This document shows positions 20,953 to 50,044 of a stretch of 64,000 bases of DNA, in pieces. The stretch lies in the NCBI GenBank assembly GCA_031409275.1, contig JANNXA010000050.1:1-64000 (forward strand). Direction: 5' to 3'. The stretch is from Planctomycetota bacterium. GTDB lineage: Bacteria; Planctomycetota; B15-G4; SIAN01. The notes beneath the pieces are model-generated. The model saw only the letters and a list, made by a program, of their open reading frames with translations, searched no databases and was not told the DNA's origin. The position numbers and the translations under genes are program-made. Every line of letters begins with the position of its first letter. The first letter of the stretch is position 1.

Positions 20953-21030
20953 TGGTAGCCCCAACGGGATTCGAACCCGTGCTTGATGGCTGAGAACCAC
21001 CCGTCCTAGACCGGACTAGACTATGGGGCC
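20953..21030 (-). tRNA. tRNA-Glu (anticodon CTC)
   Basis: Acceptor stem GGCCCCA/TGGGGCT followed by A-CCA. Anticodon arm GGTGG-TTCTCAG-CCATC. T arm ACGGG-TTCGAAT-CCCGT. Confidence 0.97.
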
Positions 21031-23122: not shown

Positions 23123-25630
23123 TCAGCCGCCGATCAGCAACTCCGCGCCGTTGCTGAGCGCGAGCTTCTTCTGCGCCGCAGGGTCGGCGACCAACACTTG
23201 GAAGTCGACCAGCACGCCGACGATCGCCGGGTCGTCCGGAATCGTGTCGGTGAGGTCCAGCGTGCCGGCGCCGCCGACGCCAGCCGCGCCACCCAGGACG
23301 AGGTTCACCAGGATCCACGGGGTCGCCACCAACAGATCGCCGCCCGCAAACGGAATGGTGGCGCGGGCGAAGCCGGTGATGAGGAGCGCCGGCGCACCGC
23401 CGAGCCCGTTGCGGATCTCGAGGGTCACGTCCTCGTTGAGGTACCACGAGCCGGAGAGCGTCGCGCTCGGCACGAAGCCGCCGGTGCCAGCGGTGCCGAC
23501 GCCGTAGGTTGTGAAGCTGCCGTCCACCCGATCGAGATCGAAGACGTAGGCCGCGCCCGCGCCGGCCGCGCTGTTGTCCGCCTCGTTGCCGTCGACGTTG
23601 ATGGCGGAGCTGTCCTCCTGGCACGCCCCGATCACCGCGGTGTCGCCGGAGATGCCGACGGCCAGGCCGAAGTTGTCGCCGGCGCCGGTATTCGAGGCTT
23701 TCGCGTACGCGAGCTGGCTCCAGGTGACTCCGGTGCGCGCGAAGAAGTAGGCGGCACCGGCGTCGCCCGAGCTGTTGTTGCCCTGATTGCCGTCGATCCC
23801 GGTCGCTTTGCTGTCTTCGCCGTACGCCCCGACCACGAGCCGATCGCCCGAGACGGAGACGGTCGCGCCGAAGATGTCGTCTTTGCCGCTGTTCGAGGCC
23901 TTCAGATACGCCTGCTGGCTCCACGTCGCCGCGCTGCGCACGAAGACGTAGGCCGCGCCCGCGGAGCGCAGGCTGTTGTCCGACTGGTTGCCGTTCACCC
24001 CCGTCGCCTTGCTGTCTTCGGCGAACGCCCCCACCACCGCGGTATCACCGTCGAGCGCCAGCACTGCGCCGAAGGAGTCGTTGCTGTCGGTGTTCGAGGC
24101 CTTCACGTAGGCCTCCTGGCTCCAGGTCGAGCCGCTGCGCGTGAAGACGTAGGCGGCGCCCGAGAAGGGCGCGCTGTTGTCCGCCTGGTTGCCGCCGACG
24201 CCAGTCGCGCCGCTGCTCTCGAGCGATGCGCCCACCAGCAGCGATTCACCCGACAACGCGGCCGCGGCTCCGAACGAATCGCCTGACTCGGCGTTCGACG
24301 CCTTGAGGTACTCCTGCTGCGTCCAGGTCGAGCCGCTGCGAACGAAGACGTAAGCCGCGCCCGCTCCGGCCGCGCTGTTGTCGGCCTGGTTGCCGCCGAT
24401 GCCCGTCGCGTTGCTGCTCTCGCCGATCGCCCCGACCGCGACGGTGTCACCCGCGATCGCGACCGCGACGCCGAAGGAGTCGAACGCCTCGCTGTTGGAG
24501 GCCTTCAAGTAGGCCTGTTGCGTCCAGGTCGAGCCCGTGCGGACGAAGACGTAAGCCGCTCCAGCGCTTTGCGCGCTGTTGTCGCTGCCGTCGCCATCGA
24601 CACCGGTGGCGTTGCTCGCCTCCCCGTTGGCGCCGACCACGATCGTGTCGCCCGAGATGGCGACCGAGACCCCGAAGAAGTCGCTGCTCCCCGCGTTCGA
24701 CGCTTTCAGGTAGGCCTGCGCGCTCCAGGTCGTTCCGTTGCGAACGAAGACGTAGGCGGCCCCAGCTTCGGGCGCGCTGTCGTCCGACTCGGGATCGGGC
24801 AAGGCGCCGTCGCTGTCCTCGCCGGTGGCGCCGATGACGACGGTGTCGCCGTCGATCGCGACCGCACCACCGAGGAGGTCGCCGGCACCGGTATTCGAGG
24901 CCTTGAGGTAGGCCTGCTGCACGACCGGGTCGATCGTGATCGGATAGGTGGCCGCGCGATCGTCGACCGCCAGCCGCAAGCGGCCCGCCTCGGCGCGCCA
25001 CGCGGCGGCGAGCGGGAGTCCCGTCGCGTCGAAGACCGCGAGCCCGGCGTAGCGCAGCACCGTCGTGCCATCGCCAGCGAGCAGCGCGACCTCGCGGCCG
25101 GCTGCCGCCACGTCCGGCCGCAGATCGCCGCGAATCGCCAGTTCGAGTTCGAGCAGGCCGACCGCGGCGTCGGCGCGGTCGCGCACCGTGTAGCCATGTT
25201 CAAGGCCACTCGGGCCGTTGACGTACCACTCCTCGAGTCGTTCATCCCACTCATAGGTGAGGCGCTCCCCCACCGCCGTGACCGCACGAGGAAGGGTGAC
25301 GGCGCAGTTCGCGCCCAACCAGCCATAGCGTGCGAGTTCGAGACCGAACGTGTGGTCGCCCGAGTCGAGCGACGTCGTGAAGCCGCAACCGTCAAAGCGC
25401 GTCGTGTATTGCTGCTCACGACTGCGCGCGAGGTAGCCCTCCTCCGCGGCGACGACCGCTCGAGCCGCGGTCGCGTGCGCCGCGGCGATCGCCGCGCGGT
25501 CGGCAGCCGAGAGCGGCGCGACCGCCGCAGAATCGCCAGGTCGCTCGCCAGGTAGCGGAGACGCGAACGCTGACGCGGCGAACAGGGGAGCGAGGCACCA
25601 GGAGGCGAGGTTCAACTGCACGGTCCGCAT
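23123..25630 (-). CDS. Secreted FG-GAP (integrin-alpha-like) repeat protein
   Basis: Signal peptide. About 7 repeats of YLKASN...FG..VAISGDT.VVGA..E.S.ATGV.G...DNS...AGAAYVF. Gly-rich C-terminal domain. Confidence 0.9.
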   Translation of the reverse strand: MRTVQLNLASWCLAPLFAASAFASPLPGERPGDSAAVAPLSAADRAAIAAAHATAARAVVAAEEGYLARSREQQYTTRFDGCGFTTSLDSGDHTFGLELARYGWLGANCAVTLPRAVTAVGERLTYEWDERLEEWYVNGPSGLEHGYTVRDRADAAVGLLELELAIRGDLRPDVAAAGREVALLAGDGTTVLRYAGLAVFDATGLPLAAAWRAEAGRLRLAVDDRAATYPITIDPVVQQAYLKASNTGAGDLLGGAVAIDGDTVVIGATGEDSDGALPDPESDDSAPEAGAAYVFVRNGTTWSAQAYLKASNAGSSDFFGVSVAISGDTIVVGANGEASNATGVDGDGSDNSAQSAGAAYVFVRTGSTWTQQAYLKASNSEAFDSFGVAVAIAGDTVAVGAIGESSNATGIGGNQADNSAAGAGAAYVFVRSGSTWTQQEYLKASNAESGDSFGAAAALSGESLLVGASLESSGATGVGGNQADNSAPFSGAAYVFTRSGSTWSQEAYVKASNTDSNDSFGAVLALDGDTAVVGAFAEDSKATGVNGNQSDNSLRSAGAAYVFVRSAATWSQQAYLKASNSGKDDIFGATVSVSGDRLVVGAYGEDSKATGIDGNQGNNSSGDAGAAYFFARTGVTWSQLAYAKASNTGAGDNFGLAVGISGDTAVIGACQEDSSAINVDGNEADNSAAGAGAAYVFDLDRVDGSFTTYGVGTAGTGGFVPSATLSGSWYLNEDVTLEIRNGLGGAPALLITGFARATIPFAGGDLLVATPWILVNLVLGGAAGVGGAGTLDLTDTIPDDPAIVGVLVDFQVLVADPAAQKKLALSNGAELLIGG

Positions 25631-25830: not shown

Positions 25831-28800
25831 TCACTTCGTGTAACTGCGCTTGCCCTTCTCCGCGTTGCCGAGGAAGCGCGTGGTGATCTCGGCGGGCACT
25901 GGCAGCAGCACCTTGTCGCCGCTCTTCAGCGCGTCCTTGGCCGGCTCGGGCGGCAGCTTCTTGTGGTCGCGCGGGAGCTGGAAGATGCCGATGCGGTCAC
26001 CCTTCTTGAGCGCGTCCTTGCTGCACCAGACCAGCACGATCTGATCGACACCGGCGTAGACCGCGGAAGTCACCTTGCCGAGGTAGGTGCCGCGCGCATC
26101 GACCACCGCATCGCCCGGCTTGACTGCGCGCGCCGCCGGATCGGTGATGCGCGCCCGGAAGATCTTGTGGGTGCGCGCCGCCTCGCGCTGCAGCAACGCC
26201 TCGCGGCCGATGAAGAACGGTTTGTGGAACTTGACGAAGCTCGGGTAGCCGGCGCCGTGCGGCCCGATGTCGAACTCGCCGGCGAGCTCGTGTCCGTACA
26301 GCGGGAAGCCCGCTTCGGTGCGCGTCGAGTCGCGCGAGCCGAGCGCAGTCGCCATCACGCCGCGCGACCTGCCGGCGGCGAGGATCGCCTCCCAGTGCTT
26401 CACGAGGCGATCGGGATGGAGGTAGAGCTCGAAGCCGATCTCCTCGCCGGTGTAGCCGGTGCGAGCGGCCAGCACGTGATCGCCCCCCATGCGAATCTCG
26501 CAGAGACCGAAGCGCTTCAGGTGGGAGAGCGCGAAGCGGCTGGCATCGTCGTCGCAGAGATCGCGCAACGTCGGCAGCGAGGCCGGCCCCTGGAACGCGA
26601 TGTCGACCCGCATCTGATCGCCCGCCGCCGCGCGATCCTTCAGGTTGATCAGCTCGACGTCGACGTCGCAGCGGACCGACGGTCGCGCCGCGTCGAGCGC
26701 ATAGCGGCCGGCCAGCACTCCACGCCACCACGCCTCGACTTTCGGCGCGTTGCTGGCGTTGACGATCACGAGGAAGCGTTCCGCCGTGCGGCGGTAGACG
26801 ATGAGGTCATCGAGCACATGGCCGTCGGGCGCCAGCGTGTAGCTGTACTGCCCCTCGCCATCCTTCAGCTTGCCGACGTAGTTCGTCGTGACGAGGTCGA
26901 GAAAGCGGCCGGCACCGGCGCCACGCACCTCGTAGCAGCCCATGTGGCTCACGTCGAAAAGGCCGGCGGCGGTGCGCACCGCGCGATGCTCTTCGAGGAT
27001 CGAGCTGTAGTGGGTCGGCATCTCCCAGCCGGCGAAGTCGACGATGCGCGACTTCTTGGCCAGAGCGAAGTGCCAGTCGTAGAGCGCGGTGCGCTGCAGG
27101 CCGCCGCCCGTGGGAGCGGTGAACGCCTCTTTCTGCGCCGCGAAGCCGTCCGCCCCGATCAGCGCCTGCTGGCCGATGAAGTAGGGCTTCTGCGCGTCCT
27201 TCGGCAGCGCTGCGGGAATCGCGCCCACTTTCGGCGCTCCGCGCTTCTCGCGCCAGGCGAGGTAGGCGCGCTCGCTGACCGGTTTGGCGACCGTGGCGAG
27301 CTTCTTCGCCAGCTCGTTGGCGAACGCCACCTCGGCGACGATCTCGTAGACCGTCGCGCCGCCGACCACGTGCGCCACGATGGCGGCCACGTCGTTCTCG
27401 CCGCCCGTCTTGAGGCGCGCGATCGTGCCGGGCACGACGTTCGTCGGCAGGCCCGCGGCCGCCAGAGCCGCCGTCGCCTTCGGCCCGGCGACGGTCAACA
27501 CGACCGCCGCGCGCGCGTGCGACGCCACGCCGTGATCCTCGACCACGATCGGACCATCGATCTTGCGCATCAGGTCGGCATCGAAGCCGACGACGCCATC
27601 CGAGAGGTCGCGCAGCCACTGCACCAGATCGAGCCCCGACTCGCTGTCGCCGGTCAGCAGCCACTGCTCGAAGCCGCGCCGCTCCTTGCCCAGTCGCGCC
27701 ACCCGGAACTCGCCGATCAGGCGCCCCTCGGCATCGAGCGCTCGCGCGACCTCGGAGCCGTCGACGCGCAGCCGCAGCAGGTCGCCGCTCAACGCGAGCT
27801 GCAACGCTTCAGCCGAACGCTCGCCGGTCACGACGATCGCCGGTGCACGCGTCGTGTCGACGAGCGCGGCGCCGCTGTCGAGCGCGCTCGCATCGTCGGC
27901 GCCATTCGCCAGCGCCGCCACCTTCACGCGCGCGACTCCCGCCGGCCCGTCGGGCTCGTAGTGCGGGTAGCTGAAGGCGCCGAACTGCGCCCCTTCGCGT
28001 CGCTCGATCATCTTCTTCACGCGCCGCTGCGCATCGCGCATCACGGAAGCCGGCAGGCGCACGCGACCGATCAGACCGGCCGCGGCATGCACCTGGAACG
28101 GTTTCATCGACGTGAGCGTGTCGACCACCGTCGCGGCGATCTCGCCCATGTCGTCGACGTCCATCCCGCGCTGCGAGACCCAGCAGGTACCAAAGCGCAG
28201 CCCGCTCGGGTGCAGCGGACGCGTGTCGCCGTGGATCGAGTTCTTGTTGCAGGTGATGCCGACGAGGTCGAGCACGCGCGCCGCAACGTCCGCCGCGACC
28301 GCCTCGCCGCTCGCCGCGACCAACGTGCGCAGGTCGACGCAGCAGAGATGGGTGTCGGTGCCACCGTAGGCCAGCGTGAGGCCGCCCTTCGCAAAACCCG
28401 CCGCCAGCGCGGCCGCGTTCTCGCGCACCCGCTTCATCAGGCGCTTGAAGTCGTCGCCTTGCGCGAGCTGGAACGCGACCGCCTTGCCGGCGATCGCGTT
28501 GATGTGCGGCCCGCCCTGCTCGCCCGGGAAAACGGCGAGGTCGATCTTGCGCGCGAGGTCGCCGTCGGTGCTGAGGATCACCGCGCCGCGCGGACCGCAC
28601 AGGGTCTTGTGGGTCGTGAAGGAGACGACGTGCGCATGGTCGATCGGATTGGGGAACTCGCCGGCGGCGACGAGGCCGGCCGGATGGGCGATGTCGGCCA
28701 GCAAGTAGGCGCCGACTTCGTCTGCGATCGCGCGAAAGCGCGCCCAATCGATCGTCCACGGGTAGGCGGAGTAGCCGGCGATGATGAGCCGCGGCTTCTC

Positions 28801-29412
28801 CTTCAGCGCATCGGCGCGCAGCTTCTCGAAGTCGATGCGGCCGGTCGCGGGATCGACGACGTACGGCACGATCCGGAAGTGCTTGCCGGAGCGATTCACC
28901 GGCGAACCGTGGGTGAGGTGGCCACCGGTCGACAGGTGCATCCCCATCACCGTCGACTCGGCCGGGATCAGCGCTTCGTAGACCGCGTTGTTGGCGGCGG
29001 CCCCTGACAACGACTGCACGTTGCAGTAGATCGCGCGCGACGGCGTCTTCGAGGTGGCGAAGAGATCGGCGAGGCGGCGGATCGCCTCCGACTCGATCAG
29101 GTTCACGTAGTCGCAGCCCTTGTAGTAGCGGCGATCGCCGTAGCGTCGGTAGTAGGCGAGGTTGCGCGCGTCGAAGTCGAGCAGGTCGCGCTCGCTGAAG
29201 GCGTTGCGCGTCGAGGGGTAGCCCTCGGCGTAGAGGTTCGAGAGCGTCGAGCCGACCGCCTCGCGCACCGGCTTCGGGCACATGCTCTCGGAAGCGATGA
29301 AGATCAGCTTCTGCTGCTGCCGCTGCGTCTCAGCAGCGATCAATCCGGCGATGCGCGGATCGATGAGATCGAGGGTCGTGGCGGCGGAGGGGGTGGTGTG
29401 GGTGGGGTTCAT
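25831..29412 (-). CDS. glyA-gcvT: Serine hydroxymethyltransferase fused to a degenerate and an intact GcvT aminomethyltransferase domain
   Basis: SHMT motifs YAEGYP, GGHLTHG, TTHKTLCGPRG (PLP Lys), QGGP, NKN. GcvT motifs RTALYDWH, FAGWEMP, GLFDVSHMG, RTGYTGE, RTEAGFPLYGHEL. One uninterrupted frame. Confidence 0.92.
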   Translation of the reverse strand: MNPTHTTPSAATTLDLIDPRIAGLIAAETQRQQQKLIFIASESMCPKPVREAVGSTLSNLYAEGYPSTRNAFSERDLLDFDARNLAYYRRYGDRRYYKGCDYVNLIESEAIRRLADLFATSKTPSRAIYCNVQSLSGAAANNAVYEALIPAESTVMGMHLSTGGHLTHGSPVNRSGKHFRIVPYVVDPATGRIDFEKLRADALKEKPRLIIAGYSAYPWTIDWARFRAIADEVGAYLLADIAHPAGLVAAGEFPNPIDHAHVVSFTTHKTLCGPRGAVILSTDGDLARKIDLAVFPGEQGGPHINAIAGKAVAFQLAQGDDFKRLMKRVRENAAALAAGFAKGGLTLAYGGTDTHLCCVDLRTLVAASGEAVAADVAARVLDLVGITCNKNSIHGDTRPLHPSGLRFGTCWVSQRGMDVDDMGEIAATVVDTLTSMKPFQVHAAAGLIGRVRLPASVMRDAQRRVKKMIERREGAQFGAFSYPHYEPDGPAGVARVKVAALANGADDASALDSGAALVDTTRAPAIVVTGERSAEALQLALSGDLLRLRVDGSEVARALDAEGRLIGEFRVARLGKERRGFEQWLLTGDSESGLDLVQWLRDLSDGVVGFDADLMRKIDGPIVVEDHGVASHARAAVVLTVAGPKATAALAAAGLPTNVVPGTIARLKTGGENDVAAIVAHVVGGATVYEIVAEVAFANELAKKLATVAKPVSERAYLAWREKRGAPKVGAIPAALPKDAQKPYFIGQQALIGADGFAAQKEAFTAPTGGGLQRTALYDWHFALAKKSRIVDFAGWEMPTHYSSILEEHRAVRTAAGLFDVSHMGCYEVRGAGAGRFLDLVTTNYVGKLKDGEGQYSYTLAPDGHVLDDLIVYRRTAERFLVIVNASNAPKVEAWWRGVLAGRYALDAARPSVRCDVDVELINLKDRAAAGDQMRVDIAFQGPASLPTLRDLCDDDASRFALSHLKRFGLCEIRMGGDHVLAARTGYTGEEIGFELYLHPDRLVKHWEAILAAGRSRGVMATALGSRDSTRTEAGFPLYGHELAGEFDIGPHGAGYPSFVKFHKPFFIGREALLQREAARTHKIFRARITDPAARAVKPGDAVVDARGTYLGKVTSAVYAGVDQIVLVWCSKDALKKGDRIGIFQLPRDHKKLPPEPAKDALKSGDKVLLPVPAEITTRFLGNAEKGKRSYTK

Positions 29413-29548
29413 GGGGCCGCAGAGCTTAGCCGGGGGCGCATCGAGCAAGCGGCGATGTGAACGAACGCTCGCGGCGGCATTCCTCCGCGCGGGACGGTAG
29501 AAATCGTTCACGCGTCCCACGAACCGCCTGAGTCGGAGGGGGAAGTCG

Positions 29549-30361
29549 ATGCCGGCCAAGCGCCCGCCACGCTGCGAGCAGGAGCCCTGCGCGATCGACG
29601 CGACGGCGGTGCCGGCCTCTGGTTCGGCCGGGACGACGTTGCGCGTGGTCTGGAACCACGACTTCGACCGACGCGCGGCGAGCCTCTTCGCCGAGTTCCG
29701 CGTCCACCACCGCCCCGAGACCTTCCGCACGCTCGTCGAAGAGCTCGCCCCGCGACTCGTGCCGATGGTCCGGGCCCGGCTACGTCGCGGGATCGGACGC
29801 GGCGACGCGCGTGAAGTGGTCGACGACACCTTCGCGCAGGTCTTTCGACGCCGCGACTCCTTCTGCGATCGCGGCCCCGGCTCATTCGTGAAGTGGTTCC
29901 TCGCCATCGCGGAGAACCTCGTGCGCCAGGAGGCGCGGGCGACCCAGCGGCGCCATCGCCGCGAGAGGCTCGCCGCCAGACCCGAGGTCGACCGCGGCGC
30001 CGATCCGTTCGCGCTACTGCTCGGAAACGAAGAGCAGTGGATCGCCGGCGCGACGTGGGCGCAGTTGCGACGACTGGCGCTCGAGGCGGTCGCCGAGATG
30101 CCCTCCGACCATTGGCGATTGCTGGTCGACTTCGCGCGCGGCGGACTGACCTACACGCAACTCGCGCAGCGCGAGGGAATCCCGCGCAGCGCGCTGGTCA
30201 TGCGCATCCAGCGCGCGCGCGAGCGGGTCGTGGCGCACGTGCGCCGACGGCTCGACGCCATCGACGCGCGCGCCGCTCAACCGCCGTCCGGCCCCGGATC
30301 GGCCAGCAGCTCGAGCGGCTGCTCGCTCACCACGCCGGCCGCAATGAGGCGCACGGTGTAG
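29549..30361 (+). CDS. ECF-type sigma factor
   Basis: Region 2-like DAREVVDDTFAQVFRRRDSF...SFVKWFLAIAENL. Region 4-like GLTYTQLAQREGIPRSALVMRIQRARER. Start uncertain. Confidence 0.75.
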   Translation: MPAKRPPRCEQEPCAIDATAVPASGSAGTTLRVVWNHDFDRRAASLFAEFRVHHRPETFRTLVEELAPRLVPMVRARLRRGIGRGDAREVVDDTFAQVFRRRDSFCDRGPGSFVKWFLAIAENLVRQEARATQRRHRRERLAARPEVDRGADPFALLLGNEEQWIAGATWAQLRRLALEAVAEMPSDHWRLLVDFARGGLTYTQLAQREGIPRSALVMRIQRARERVVAHVRRRLDAIDARAAQPPSGPGSASSSSGCSLTTPAAMRRTV

Positions 30362-30451: not shown

Positions 30452-32229
30452 TCACTGGAGGTGAACCCACTTGGCGACCGAGGGCACCCCGGTGTTGCTG
30501 ATGAGGAACATCAAGTAGAAACCTGGCGGCGCCACGATGGAGCCCTGCGTCGTGCCGAACGGGTTCGGCGTCGGAGGCGTCTTGATCACGATGGTGTCCG
30601 GCGGCGCCGTTGCCGAAAGTTCCTCCAACTCAACGTAGCGCTGGTCCATGTCGCTGTGGTGGGTGATGGAGCAAGGGCGCATCAGCACGACCCGATCCAC
30701 CGACATGCCGATCGGCATCGGAGCGTACTGGATCGAGTAGGTGGTGTCGTAGTCAAGGAAAGGCCCGCTGCTCGTGGGCACGAAGACCGGTCGCGTTGAC
30801 GCACCGGTTGCAGGAAGATAATCGGGAGCAAAGACCTCGTAATCGTGCGATCGGACATCTCCACCCGCCGAGACCACCTTGCCACTCGGCAGCAGGGCCG
30901 CCGTCGAGTGGTACATCCGAGCGGAAACTTGCGGATTCTGCAGCACCCACTGATTGGTGGACCTGCGGTAGACCTCAGGTCGAGTTTCCGGAACCGGGGT
31001 GATCCCGAAATTGAAGTAATCGGATCCGTTGGTGCTGCCGCCGATCACGAGAACCGCCCCGTCCGGCAATAGGACGGCGTTCGCGACCATCCGACCCACG
31101 TTCATCGACGGGAATGACGACCACGCCGTGCTTCCCGTACCGCTGAAGGCATTACAGACTTGAACAGTGGGGCTGGCGTTCAGGGCAGTGTTACTGCTCC
31201 CACCCAGGATCATGACCCTGTCTTGCTGGTTCGCACGCCGCCCGACGTTCGGGAGAAGGACCGACGATCCGTAATTCCGGAACATGCCGTTGCCGAGAAT
31301 ACTCACAAGCGGCAACCACGCACCGTGACTCTGAGGATGAACGCGGTTCCCTCCAGTGTACATTCCCGCGACGAAGAGATGACCCGACGACAACAGGTGC
31401 TGCCGGGGGTATTCGCCGAACAAGCTGTAGCAGTGAGTACTCTGCCTGGCGTAGTCCGGGCCTTCATGGACACCGGGAGAAACCGGGCCACTGATCCAGT
31501 TTCCCGTGGCGATGTCCCAGATCTCGTACGTATCCGCCGCCGGATCAAGCGTCCCTCCATAGATCGCTGTCTCACAGTGGCGATTGTCAGTATCGACCAC
31601 CCCACCCGACACCATGATCGTGTTGTCGCCGAGAAGCGTCACGGTGGGATACCAGCGTTGGAGCGCCATCGGTTGGACGTACGTCCAACCCCAATTGTTA
31701 GCGGCGTTGACCAGCGTCGGATCCCAGATTCCAGCGAACGCGCTGCCCAGGTAATTCTGCGGACCGGCGGGATCGTCATCTGGGTACTTTATTGTTCCGC
31801 CAGCGACGAACAGGCGCCCATCTGGCATCCAGGTGTGCCCAGCACAGAAGAGGTCGCCGAGCCCCGCCGGAATCACGATCGAGTAGTTATCAAAGTAGGG
31901 AGGAGTCGCCTCGGGAGCCCCGACCGAGAAGCGCTGATCCCAAGGGCCCGGGCCGAAGTGTGTAGTATCGCTTTGCTTGTCCCATACGATCACCTTGCCC
32001 AACGGGCCGTCCGGGCCAACGACTTCGGCCAACGGGATCACCGCCATGTTGATCGCCTCGAACGACGTCAGCGCCGGGTCCCACGTCGCAGGACCGTTCT
32101 GCACCGGATGGCCGAATCCCGTGCCCACGAACCCCACGAGCCCTGCCCAGGAGGTGACTGCCGCGCGCCAGCCGTAGCATTTGCGAGCGTCATCACCAGC
32201 CAGATTCCTCCGGCAGATCGAATTCTCAT
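30452..32229 (-). CDS. Galactose-oxidase-like copper radical oxidase (AA5/DUF1929 type), probably frameshifted near the 5' end
   Basis: Cofactor and Cu-ligand motifs DLFCAGH, RWYPT, RMYHS, SITHH. C-terminal APPGFYLMFL. The signal peptide from ATG 32229 is in a different frame from the catalytic body. Confidence 0.85.
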
Positions 32230-32384
32230 GACCCACGCCCCTCCTCTTGACTCGGGTAGTCCCGTGGCAGATCCACTCTCCACGAGTAAGAAGCGACTCA
32301 AGGCGCCCCGAAGAGCGAGAACTCCGATGGCCCGCCGCGAACAGCCGTCGTGGAAATTCGACGGCTCATCATTGCCTACTTCCA

Positions 32385-35177
32385 TCACTTCGTGAGCGCA
32401 AAACCTTGTCCGGCGCCTGGCTTCGTCATCTTCGACAACAACAATGGAGAGCCGGCAAGCGAACTCCCACCCTCCCAAAGATAGAGCGCGCCGACATCGA
32501 CTGCGGCGAGATCCGCCCAAGGAGTTCCACTCACGATGTCGAGCAGTCCGTCGCCAGTGACGTCGGCGAGGTAGTACCCCTGTGAAGCAGCTCGACACAT
32601 GAAATCGAGTTGCTTCGCACTCGGGTCGATCAACTCGGCCAGCGGCTTGGGCGTGCCTTGCAGCACAACACCTCCCTCCCAAAGATACATCGCGCCCACA
32701 TCCTGCTTGCCGCTGAGGTCCTTGTACTGCGCGCTGGCCACGACATCAGGCAGGCCGTCACCCGTGACGTCGGCAATCTGGATCGACTGTCCAGTTGCCA
32801 AGCCGAGGAAATCGGACGCTCGGCGATTCGATGCCCTCAGCTCGGCGCGTGGAGCGGGCGTCCCAGAGAGCGTGCCTCCACCCGTCCAAACGAACAGCGC
32901 CCCGGTGTCCAAGGTGCCGCCGACGTCGAACCGGATCGAGCCGGTCACCACATCGAGAACATCGTCACCGCTCAGATCGACGAGCTGCACTCCTTGCGCG
33001 AACCCTCCGAGGTCACCGAGGATGTCGTTCGTATTGCCGTTGGGGGCGTAGAGTTCTGCGCGCGGCGCAAGCGAGCCAGTCAGCAGGGGGCCCCCGGCCC
33101 AGACATAGACCGCGCCCACATCCGACTTGCCCGGGAGCACGTCTGCAACGATCGTCCCAGCGACGACATCGATGTAGTCGTCCCCCGTGACGTCGGCGAG
33201 CTGGATCGAGACCCCTGCCTTGATGAAGAAGATCCCCCCTCCCGTCGACCCCAGCGCATCATTCGCCTGCGCTCCGGGGACCGAGAGCGTGGCAAGCGGG
33301 GCGGGCGTCCCGACCAGCGACGCGCCGCCGCTCCAGACGTAGATCGCGCCGACGTCCACCAATCCCGCGAGGTCCGCGAAGCGACTGCCGACCACCAGAT
33401 CGCGCACGCCATCTCCTGTCACGTCGTCGACCAGCACGCCCTGGCCGTGTGCGTCGCTGAGCCAGTCGTAAGCGACTGCACCGGCGATCGTGAGCGTCGC
33501 GAGCGGCGGCGGCGTCCCGGTCAGCGCCGCGCCGTCCCAGACGTAGACCGCGCCTGCGTCGATCACGCCACCGACGTTGGCGTCGCTGGCCGCCGCGATG
33601 ACGTCGACCCGGCCATCGCCGGTCACGTCGTCGAGGATCACCCCGCGACCGCTCACCCCGCCGATGTCGATCAGGCCGAGCTGGTCGGAGGCTTGGCCCC
33701 CCGGCACCGAAAGCGTCGCGATCGGTGTCGGGGCTCCGGTCAGGGCGCCGCCGCCTCTCCAGATGTAGATCGCGCCCGCCGCGGATGCGCCGCCGGCGGT
33801 CGCCCAAATCGTATTGACGACGAGGTCGGCGATGCCGTCGCCCGTCACGTCAACGATCTGCCCGACCGTGCCGGGATAGAGCAGCGACACCAGGTCGTAA
33901 GCGTCGCCGGTGTAGCCCAGCATGCTTGTGGTCGCGGCTCCCGCGATCGTCAGCGTCGCGCGCGGCGCGGGCGTTCCCTGGAGTGACGCTCCACCCTTCC
34001 AGACGTAGATCGCGCCGGCATCGACGACGCCATTCACGTCGATGTAGTTCGAGCCGGCGATGACGTCCAGCACCGAGTCGCCTGTCACGTCGACGAGCTG
34101 CGTGACCGACATCCCCAGTCCGTCGTCGGCCACCGCGGTCGGCGCCGTGAGCGTGGCGAACGGCGCAGGGGTGCCGCTCAACGTCGGCCCGCCTCTCCAG
34201 ACGTAGAGAGCGCCCGCCGATCGGACGCCACTGATGGTGACCGCGATCGACCCTGAAACGATGTCGATCAGACCGTCTCCAGAGACATCCGCGAGCTGGA
34301 TCCCCTGACCGCTGCGCTTCGTGAGAGTGTCGGAGGTCGTCGCGCCCGAAATTGTCAGCGTGGCGAGCGGCGCGGGCGTACCAGTGAGCGGTGCGCCGCC
34401 TTGCCAAACGTAGATTGCACCTGCATTGGAGACTCCCGCCACGTCCGCTAGGTACGTGCCCACCACGATGTCGAGCACGCCATCTCCCGTGACGTCAGCG
34501 AGCTGGATGCCTTGCCCCTTCCACGCGATTCCAAGTTGGTCGTACGGTTTCGCGCCCGGAATCGCGAGCGTCGCATCGGGCACGCCTGAGGGAGTGGGCA
34601 CCCCGTTCCAGACAAGAACACGGCCGGCTTGCGTGCCTCCCCCGTACTGCGCTCCCGCCACCGTGTCGAGCACGCCATCACCCGTGACGTCGCCGATCTG
34701 GATCGTCGCAGCCACGGTCTCGCCCTCGGCACGCACGTCGACTGTCGTGAAGAGCGGGACCTCCGGTTGGGCAAGGTCGGTCGCCCGGAAGGTCAGGTGT
34801 TGCAGCCCGCCGACGTTTTTGGGCACGAGCCATCGCACCTTGCCGATCGCAGTCACCCAGTCGCCGGTGCCGGACTTGCCGAGCCTGCCGACCGACGACT
34901 GCTGGCGATCCTGCACAAACACGCATCCCGGCGGCGGATTCAAGAGCGCCAGCGTCACCTTCGCTGGCTGCGGGCTGGTCGCCCGCACGGTGAATTCCAC
35001 CTGATCGCCCGCCATGACCACCGTGCCGGGCGGCAGCGTCGTCGTGAGCGTGGGACCGGGTGATGGCGCGCTCGGCGTCCACTTGCCGCTCGGCCCCGAT
35101 TGCGGGAACGCCGCTGCCAGCGAAAGCGCGGCCACCACTACGAGCAGCAGCAACCCGGGAACCTGCTTCATCGCCAT
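32385..35177 (-). CDS. Secreted FG-GAP/integrin-alpha-like repeat protein with an N-terminal Ig-like domain
   Basis: Signal peptide. About 11 repeats of DVTGDG..D.V.G...AGA.YVW.GG..L.GTPAP.ATL. Confidence 0.9.
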   Translation of the reverse strand: MAMKQVPGLLLLVVVAALSLAAAFPQSGPSGKWTPSAPSPGPTLTTTLPPGTVVMAGDQVEFTVRATSPQPAKVTLALLNPPPGCVFVQDRQQSSVGRLGKSGTGDWVTAIGKVRWLVPKNVGGLQHLTFRATDLAQPEVPLFTTVDVRAEGETVAATIQIGDVTGDGVLDTVAGAQYGGGTQAGRVLVWNGVPTPSGVPDATLAIPGAKPYDQLGIAWKGQGIQLADVTGDGVLDIVVGTYLADVAGVSNAGAIYVWQGGAPLTGTPAPLATLTISGATTSDTLTKRSGQGIQLADVSGDGLIDIVSGSIAVTISGVRSAGALYVWRGGPTLSGTPAPFATLTAPTAVADDGLGMSVTQLVDVTGDSVLDVIAGSNYIDVNGVVDAGAIYVWKGGASLQGTPAPRATLTIAGAATTSMLGYTGDAYDLVSLLYPGTVGQIVDVTGDGIADLVVNTIWATAGGASAAGAIYIWRGGGALTGAPTPIATLSVPGGQASDQLGLIDIGGVSGRGVILDDVTGDGRVDVIAAASDANVGGVIDAGAVYVWDGAALTGTPPPLATLTIAGAVAYDWLSDAHGQGVLVDDVTGDGVRDLVVGSRFADLAGLVDVGAIYVWSGGASLVGTPAPLATLSVPGAQANDALGSTGGGIFFIKAGVSIQLADVTGDDYIDVVAGTIVADVLPGKSDVGAVYVWAGGPLLTGSLAPRAELYAPNGNTNDILGDLGGFAQGVQLVDLSGDDVLDVVTGSIRFDVGGTLDTGALFVWTGGGTLSGTPAPRAELRASNRRASDFLGLATGQSIQIADVTGDGLPDVVASAQYKDLSGKQDVGAMYLWEGGVVLQGTPKPLAELIDPSAKQLDFMCRAASQGYYLADVTGDGLLDIVSGTPWADLAAVDVGALYLWEGGSSLAGSPLLLSKMTKPGAGQGFALTK

Positions 35178-48627: not shown

Positions 48628-50044
<1,417 letters not shown>

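Follow-up and report, generated by a model that had tools for sequence, protein, structure and literature searches.

We analyzed a 64,000-nucleotide stretch of a Planctomycetota genome (GCA_031409275.1, contig JANNXA010000050.1, positions 1 to 64,000; hereafter the window), and in particular the minus-strand gene at 25831-29412, whose product (P0001) joins serine hydroxymethyltransferase (SHMT), a degenerate copy of the glycine cleavage T-protein (GcvT), and a complete GcvT. One chain carries both enzymes with the catalytic motifs of both intact, and it is predicted from its sequence to be bifunctional. The explanation that we favor, and consider fairly probable, is a bifunctional SHMT/T-protein with a structural spacer that would act, together with separately encoded H, P, and L proteins, in the ordinary one-carbon metabolism of serine and glycine. 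We read the protein as bifunctional because the catalytic residues at both ends are invariant in 117 of 117 aligned proteins (alignments A1/A2; P0008, P0013, and P0018 of the 120 proteins were left out), and we assign a structural role to the middle because a subdomain (residues 521-630) and its motif are kept in shortened and split relatives. A further alignment (A3) excluded 4 of 15 duplicate loci.

The gene is a single open reading frame (ORF), running from 29412 to 25831, of 1193 amino acids plus a stop, without internal stops. An earlier note on this DNA had described SHMT, a degenerate GcvT, and an intact GcvT in one frame, and the 1193-codon ORF, the Pfam scan, and the fold matches confirm that architecture; the four motifs that it quoted for the middle copy (VTGERSAEALQ, DAEGRLI, VAGPKA, and KPYFIGQ) were all found in the translation. 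Two amendments are needed: the middle module comprises only the two N-terminal GcvT domains, and the SHMT contains an insertion of 26-27 residues that had gone unmentioned. Scanned as a whole, the protein matched the Pfam families SHMT (401 bits, cut-off 27; residues 87-428 plus a short N-terminal piece) and GCV_T (249 bits; residues 783-1055). The ATG at 29412 is backed by homologue lengths and by the database protein (1193 aa). The frame remains open upstream as far as 29907, and a start there was rejected as overlapping a divergent sigma-factor gene and unsupported by homologues; a plus-strand reading holds a stop and makes no family sense. GC content at third codon positions (GC3) is uniform, at 0.91-0.95, across all modules. 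An AlphaFold model of the full chain reached a predicted local distance difference test (pLDDT) of 90.2 and a predicted template modeling score (pTM) of 0.88, and the latter, being for the whole chain, suggests a fixed packing of the modules. Between SHMT and the middle module the alignments and the model place a linker (residues 476-495; 27928-27987, minus strand) with a conserved Y482-P483, and pLDDT is about 67-69 over residues 471-490. Just upstream of the gene, a 23-codon frame on the same strand (29409-29480) starts at 29480 and its stop overlaps the fusion ATG; its purine-rich stretch is too near its start for a usual ribosome site, and the frame is probably due to chance.

The SHMT module (residues 14-475; 27988-29373, minus strand), delimited by Pfam, Foldseek, and alignment to 1kkj, scored 424 bits against NF000586 (GlyA; cut-off 335), and Foldseek superposed it on 1kkj with a target-based template modeling (TM) score of 0.95, a root-mean-square deviation (rmsd) of 2.4, and 44% identity. 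The lysine that binds pyridoxal phosphate (PLP) is K269 (28606-28608), and this residue is invariant in all 117 aligned proteins together with S41, Y61, E63, Y97, H165, D240, H243, and R406, to which we presume the usual SHMT active-site roles, as the mutant titles of structure entries partly echo. The module thus has the fold, the PLP lysine motif, and the active-site residues of GlyA (PF00464, NF000586; PDB 1kkj, 1dfo, and 2dkj), and differs from it in the 26-27-residue insertion and in about 720 additional C-terminal residues. The insertion (residues 67-93; 29134-29214, minus strand) sits between Y65/P66 and R94, i.e., between the active-site residues Y61/E63 and Y96/Y97, and is predicted to form two helices (residues 68-73 and 81-91 in the AlphaFold model). 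It appears specific to the fusion family: the corresponding spacing was 27-28 residues in 85 of 85 pattern-matched fusion-type frames and 1-2 residues in 15 of 15 canonical SHMT loci.

At the other end of the chain, alignments and the model delimit a complete GcvT (residues 772-1193; 25834-27099, minus strand), in which M824, D868, D869, N885, Y987, E995, and R1027 are invariant in 117 of 117 proteins. [quoted passage not shown] The module falls just below the cut-offs of TIGR00528 (222 bits vs. 235.85) and NF001567 (262 vs. 300), and the TIGR00528 cut-off is passed by the C-terminal module in 15 of the 22 other fusion genomes of the order. The all-beta C-terminal domain, from about residue 1082 (26169), gave no match to PF08669 in P0001, and this family matches several homologues; on the basis of six strands predicted at 1082-1177 (pLDDT mostly 75-95) and of a 1woo alignment that extends as far as residue 339, the barrel is present in the modeled protein. 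The five folate and catalytic contacts and the three-domain layout of GcvT (PF01571, TIGR00528, NF001567; PDB 1woo/1wos, 3a8i, and 1yx2) are therefore kept. In contrast to stand-alone GcvT, the module is fused behind SHMT outside a gcvH-gcvP cluster, has two lineage-specific insertions, and is preceded by a dead copy without a barrel.

That copy, the middle module (residues 496-762; 27127-27927, minus strand), was identified by profiles and fold matches. Scored alone, the region obtained 35-36 bits against PF01571 (cut-off 25.6), and a profile-profile comparison with the protein's own C-terminal GcvT returned a probability of 100 (E = 1.7e-53, 262 columns). Folded alone from 118 aligned rows, it reached a pLDDT of 92.5, and the fold matched the T-proteins 3gir (Z = 23.6, rmsd 2.7, 232 aligned) and 1wos at residues 4-277 (Z = 22.5, rmsd 2.9, 235 aligned), with Foldseek E values to T-proteins of 1e-12. 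The concern that the middle region might have no GcvT fold is thereby removed, and its description as a degenerate GcvT holds in both respects, fold and decay. Sequence alone gave only one PDB match, at E = 0.15 to a T-protein, so that profiles and folds were needed. The end of the module corresponds to residue 277 of the 361 in 1wos, and the GcvT that follows begins ten residues on, leaving no barrel. At the sites compared (A523, G567, E568, V683, E690, and Y717), four of the five folate contacts are changed (A523, E568, V683, and Y717) and only E690, the equivalent of the pteridine-binding Glu, is kept, as it is in 87 of 117 proteins. None of the 15 proteins comprising P0001 and its 14 closest aligned relatives retains the Met, Tyr, or Arg contact, and 13 of the 15 have lost the catalytic Asp. 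Conservation of at least 90% was seen at 23 of the 260 columns of the middle module, compared with 155 of 427 for SHMT and 100 of 304 for the N-terminal part of GcvT.

Most Chloroflexota relatives have gone further and keep a single subdomain. Sixty ORFs from 80 GTDB loci were complete enough for a count of long and short forms, and 50 of these near-complete proteins are short, at about 1040 aa. Short forms lack alignment columns 491-520 and 631-735 and retain 521-630 and 741-770, having lost about 45 residues ahead of G530 and about 115 beyond P621; in the 293 proteins with all anchors, the spacing in long vs. short forms was 92 vs. 84 residues from G530 to P621 and 170 vs. 55 from P621 to L777. 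Of the 50 short forms, 46 have no residue at the Tyr position, 45 none at the Glu position, and 43 none at the Arg position. What is retained corresponds to Thermotoga maritima GcvT residues of about 52-139 and 241-280, which we take to be one of the three domains; the Iba57 paper describes N-terminal domains of the same layout, one contiguous and one discontinuous (PMC9551070). The folate cleft cannot form in the short forms because the other N-terminal domain is gone. A tree of the SHMT module (148 tips, midpoint root) implied six changes among the long, short, and split states, and short forms stand at several places in it; therefore, shortening probably happened more than once.

Column occupancy, anchor spacing, and the split proteins define the retained part as a contiguous subdomain (residues 524-627; 27532-27843, minus strand). 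It contains a conserved motif, a candidate docking surface (residues 599-626, comprising R601, S604, D605, G606, F610, D611, D613, G620, and P621; 27535-27618, minus strand). R601, D605, and G620 are kept in 124, 126, and 129 of 129 long forms, in 161, 158, and 165 of 171 short forms (which include 120 close neighbors of one query and are hence nonindependent), and in 20, 20, and 20 of 21 short forms without GcvT. The matching positions are mostly variable in active GcvT, and the pattern points to a new function, most simply that of a packing surface. In split proteins of 586-596 aa (four GTDB loci and further database proteins), the chain ends right after the motif, so that the remnant stays on SHMT; gcvT is the next gene at two of the four loci and is absent from the other two. 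Our own covariation analysis (335 sequences, effective number 144, i.e., a shallow alignment) recovered mainly within-module pairs: the top 200 pairs included 22 between SHMT and the middle module vs. 23 expected by pair number, and 19 between SHMT and GcvT vs. 75 expected. A few pairs linked residues 531-533 with SHMT residues 70, 74, 174, 182, and 205.

Features common to the two copies make it likely that the middle module arose by internal duplication of the GcvT in the same chain. Both have insertions of about 15 and about 7 residues before the QGP motif, which are absent in the five stand-alone GcvTs printed, in 1woo, and in 3a8i; the first is also absent from YgfZ in the alignment. The motif spacing is 60 residues in the two modules vs. 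40 in the stand-alone GcvTs measured, and 16 of 21 stand-alone GcvT matches break at the insertion site. In a tree of the copies, the subclades of the middle copy largely mirror those of the C-terminal copy with longer branches (P0001-P0007: 0.58 vs. 0.18). A root with YgfZ falls among the fast-evolving middle copies, and we did not use the YgfZ-rooted tree as a guide to the order of events because of long-branch distortion. GcvT would have been duplicated in tandem behind SHMT; the first copy would then have lost its barrel, followed in a number of lineages by its folate contacts and one half of the cleft, while a helix-loop motif of the decayed copy may have come under new selection as a packing surface. 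Such a stepwise decay of a duplicated enzyme into a structural subdomain would make a clear evolutionary case. YgfZ/Iba57 (1nrk and 7z3h) offers a precedent for repurposing, as a GcvT fold without canonical folate binding (PMC9551070), and 1nrk matches the middle module well (Z = 21.9, rmsd 2.7, 228 aligned). The middle module differs from YgfZ in having no barrel and in having insertions common with the neighboring GcvT and not with YgfZ, and the genome contains a separate YgfZ-like gene.

The fusion is widespread. Among the matches listed, the alignments of 118 of 119 other proteins span 96-100% of the query, with identities of 40-82%; named sources include Planctomycetes/Planctomycetota (the closest named, at 77%), Anaerolineae, Aerophobetes, Poribacteria, Brocadiae, and Eremiobacteraeota; GTDB loci extend it to many Chloroflexota, Bipolaricaulota, Deltaproteobacteria, and Myxococcota. 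In the phylum, 68 of 301 sampled genomes matched a middle-module profile, some of these matches being to the C-terminal module only. Twenty-two further genomes of the order carry the same frame. An assembly or frameshift artefact joining separate genes, which the earlier note had named as a possible undoing of the fusion, is refuted by these independent full-length homologues, and the uniform GC3 agrees; its remaining probability is negligible. It might have been entertained on the grounds that the genome is an assembly of 55 contigs (93% complete) and that no independent listed contig covers the middle-GcvT junction. Of the two junctions to be confirmed on contigs from public runs, the SHMT-middle junction is bridged without differences by a contig from a second sample of the same study, and the middle-GcvT junction is bridged by no listed contig piece from three other public runs; one contig spans the whole gene and is possibly the source contig itself. 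Two related frames are overlong: in an Ardenticatenaceae short-form fusion (L074:6001-10600, plus strand), the frame continues to about 1567 aa, ~550 residues past GcvT, and P0008 is likewise long at 1492 aa, possibly through further fusion or a lost stop.

The fusion is the only SHMT and the only canonical GcvT found in its genome. Searching the genome with each module by tblastn returned only self-matches, PF00464 matched the fusion alone, and PF01571 matched only the two fusion modules and the YgfZ-like gene, so that the check for stand-alone glyA and gcvT genes yielded none. The statement that gcvH and gcvP lie outside the window was right: both are on another contig (C27), where gcvH adjoins a single-chain gcvP with no gcvT beside them. 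At that locus (G000:C27:119805-125146; L001-L003), minus-strand gcvH and gcvP converge on transaldolase-like and lipoate-ligase/octanoyltransferase-like genes, as named from their translations. Lpd, FolD, and SerA are present in the genome, and one of two dihydrolipoamide dehydrogenases above the TIGR01350 cut-off lies in the window (48652-50034, minus strand) as a candidate L-protein. Formate-THF ligase (Fhs) was not found in this 93%-complete genome, whose incompleteness means that absence is not proved, nor was an Fe-S serine dehydratase; Fhs was also not found in four of four same-genus and two of two genus-g2 genomes (70-94% complete), nor in six of seven same-family genomes. Among the 41 genomes of the order, which are kin and not independent samples, 23 have the fused type, one a broken fusion, and one both types, three incomplete genomes have none, and 14 of the 15 genomes of family f4 have canonical SHMT only. 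No other full SHMT match was found in 22 of the 23 fusion genomes, and 16 of the 23 are without canonical stand-alone gcvT, one being unresolved on short contigs. Four genomes of family f4 (G027, G035, G038, and G040) have a second, more divergent canonical-type SHMT of about 400 bits, and several genomes carry another GcvT-like family at 165-186 bits.

Taken together, these results suggest an enzyme that would carry out both serine-glycine interconversion and glycine cleavage. The chain would dimerize through SHMT, as SHMTs do, the decayed GcvT-fold module would persist as a structural spacer packed against the SHMT side, and the C-terminal GcvT would work with separate lipoyl-H, P, and L proteins. 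Methylene-THF would most likely be supplied from serine and glycine in this organism (SerA and FolD are present and Fhs was not found). The fusion would set a 1:1 stoichiometry and the proximity of the two activities. Several observations weigh against parts of this account. Of the 102 distant long forms, 90 have the Asp contact in the middle copy, 84 the Arg, 73 the Glu, 58 the Tyr, and 33 the Met, so that folate binding may persist there. The short forms behind the motif counts are nonindependent, and the ten split proteins tested form one clade, and so represent one event; moreover, with gcvT next at two of the four split loci, the motif could contact GcvT in trans. The position of the YgfZ root means that the tree cannot alone prove duplication. 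Finally, a canonical gcvT adjoins gcvH in 7 of the 23 fusion genomes, so that the fused GcvT is not always the sole one.

The alternatives concern mainly what the middle module does. SHMT and GcvT use one labile folate carrier, and the dead copy and the SHMT insertion might set the folate cleft of GcvT beside the folate site of SHMT, in the same or the partner subunit, for direct passage of methylene-THF, and so drive the formation of Ser from 2 Gly or of 2 Gly from Ser + CO2 + NH3. The shared carrier, the confident whole-chain packing (pTM 0.88), the placement of the insertion in the loop of active-site residues and its presence in all 85 matched fusion frames, and the retention of the fusion across many phyla would all fit. 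We nevertheless consider such channeling unlikely: one clade has split GcvT off, out of the neighborhood at two loci, spacer length differs by ~160 residues between long and short forms, and in both the usual one-carbon supply and the reductive glycine pathway the two sites run the same way and need no hand-over. A hand-over requires that methylene-THF be made at one site and used at the other, as when two glycines are converted to serine or in the opposite direction. A specific form of the idea, in which the dead duplicate, reduced to one subdomain with a conserved motif, clamps the SHMT insertion and holds the live T-protein for direct methylene-THF passage, is put forward as speculation to which we give about one chance in a handful. 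The earlier note had suggested that the middle copy may be a scaffold binding folate or H-protein, and a folate-binding or regulatory domain (a sensor or reservoir) or a second H-protein dock would agree with the retained GcvT fold, with E690, and with the several contacts kept by most distant long forms. Against it stand the four changed contacts in P0001, the losses of Met, Tyr, Arg, and Asp in its closest relatives, the missing barrel, and the deletion by 50 of 60 GTDB relatives of the Tyr/Glu/Arg half of a cleft that, according to PMC9551070, is formed between the two N-terminal domains. That the middle domain of P0001 binds folate or H-protein is unlikely, and as a general explanation we hold it to be quite improbable; a scaffold in the purely structural sense is plausible.

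The proposed connection with the reductive glycine pathway is weak. There, methylene-THF is consumed by the glycine cleavage system, after which SHMT turns glycine to serine (PMC12844395), and both activities of the fusion belong to the pathway. Because GcvT and SHMT both consume methylene-THF there, the pathway supplies no hand-over. The glycine-to-serine step of SHMT consumes a second methylene-THF. FolD, the glycine cleavage system, and SHMT are present in the genome, and Fhs occurs in most fusion-bearing genomes of families f2 (11 of 12) and f5 (5 of 5), but it is equally common in the fusion-less family f4 (11 of 15), and neither it nor an Fe-S serine dehydratase was found here, with Fhs likewise missing from the searches of the same-genus and genus-g2 genomes. 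Furthermore, the flanks fetched for the 80 GTDB loci contained gcvH in only 6 cases and gcvP in 8. That the fusion is the core enzyme of a formate- or CO2-assimilating reductive glycine pathway is therefore very improbable, and we return to the bifunctional SHMT/T-protein with a structural spacer.

Comparable architectures are known. In dimethylglycine oxidase/dehydrogenase (1pj5 and 5l46), sarcosine oxidase alpha (1vrq), and trimethylamine N-oxide demethylase (9q59), a GcvT-fold domain is joined to another catalytic domain, as in the fusion; there the partner makes an iminium or formaldehyde unit for the folate site, and dimethylglycine oxidase channels its one-carbon intermediate internally. 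In the fusion, by contrast, both partners have a folate site of their own, GcvT is joined to a PLP enzyme, and the two are separated by an additional, dead copy. Fluorothreonine transaldolase (TIGR04506) shares an SHMT-like domain with a C-terminal fused domain, and the fusion scored 79 bits against this model, far below the 650-bit cut-off; the added domain of the transaldolase is not known to be GcvT-like.

Both enzymes and GcvT-fold fusions are already known, and the SHMT-GcvT architecture is already in databases under single-enzyme names, either GcvT only or SHMT only. No paper on the fusion was found in the literature searched, which left most subscription papers and all supplements outside, where genome papers may list it, and the available parts of PMC10327494 and PMC12844395 do not mention it. 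The chemistry of the fusion itself is ordinary. Single-enzyme labels mean that metabolic reconstructions of many Chloroflexota, Planctomycetota, and other uncultured lineages may overlook one activity. Direct hand-over of the carrier between SHMT and the glycine cleavage system is hard to test in loose multi-protein systems, and a single chain with natural long, short, and split forms would simplify a test of channeling; it is also a possible part for engineering glycine/serine one-carbon routes.

Within the window, the direct neighbors of the fusion, a divergent sigma-70-family gene (region 2; 29549-30361, plus strand) and an FG-GAP repeat protein, have no evident link to it. No riboswitch or other Rfam family was found near the fusion, the only Rfam match of the window being a tRNA gene (20956-21030, minus strand). 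The YgfZ-like gene (PF01571 and PF08669; 58742-59986, plus strand) shares a contig with the fusion in three same-family genomes as well, at a distance of about 27-30 kb, which probably reflects plain synteny. A galactose-oxidase-like Kelch protein is encoded at 30452-32236 (minus strand) between the FG-GAP repeat genes at 23123-25630 and 32385-35177, and its codon use, at a GC-looking level of about 55-60%, is unlike that of its neighbors. Similar short sequences, with similar peptide tails, follow the 3′ ends of the genes at 29549-30361 and 32385-35177 and possibly represent a small repeat.

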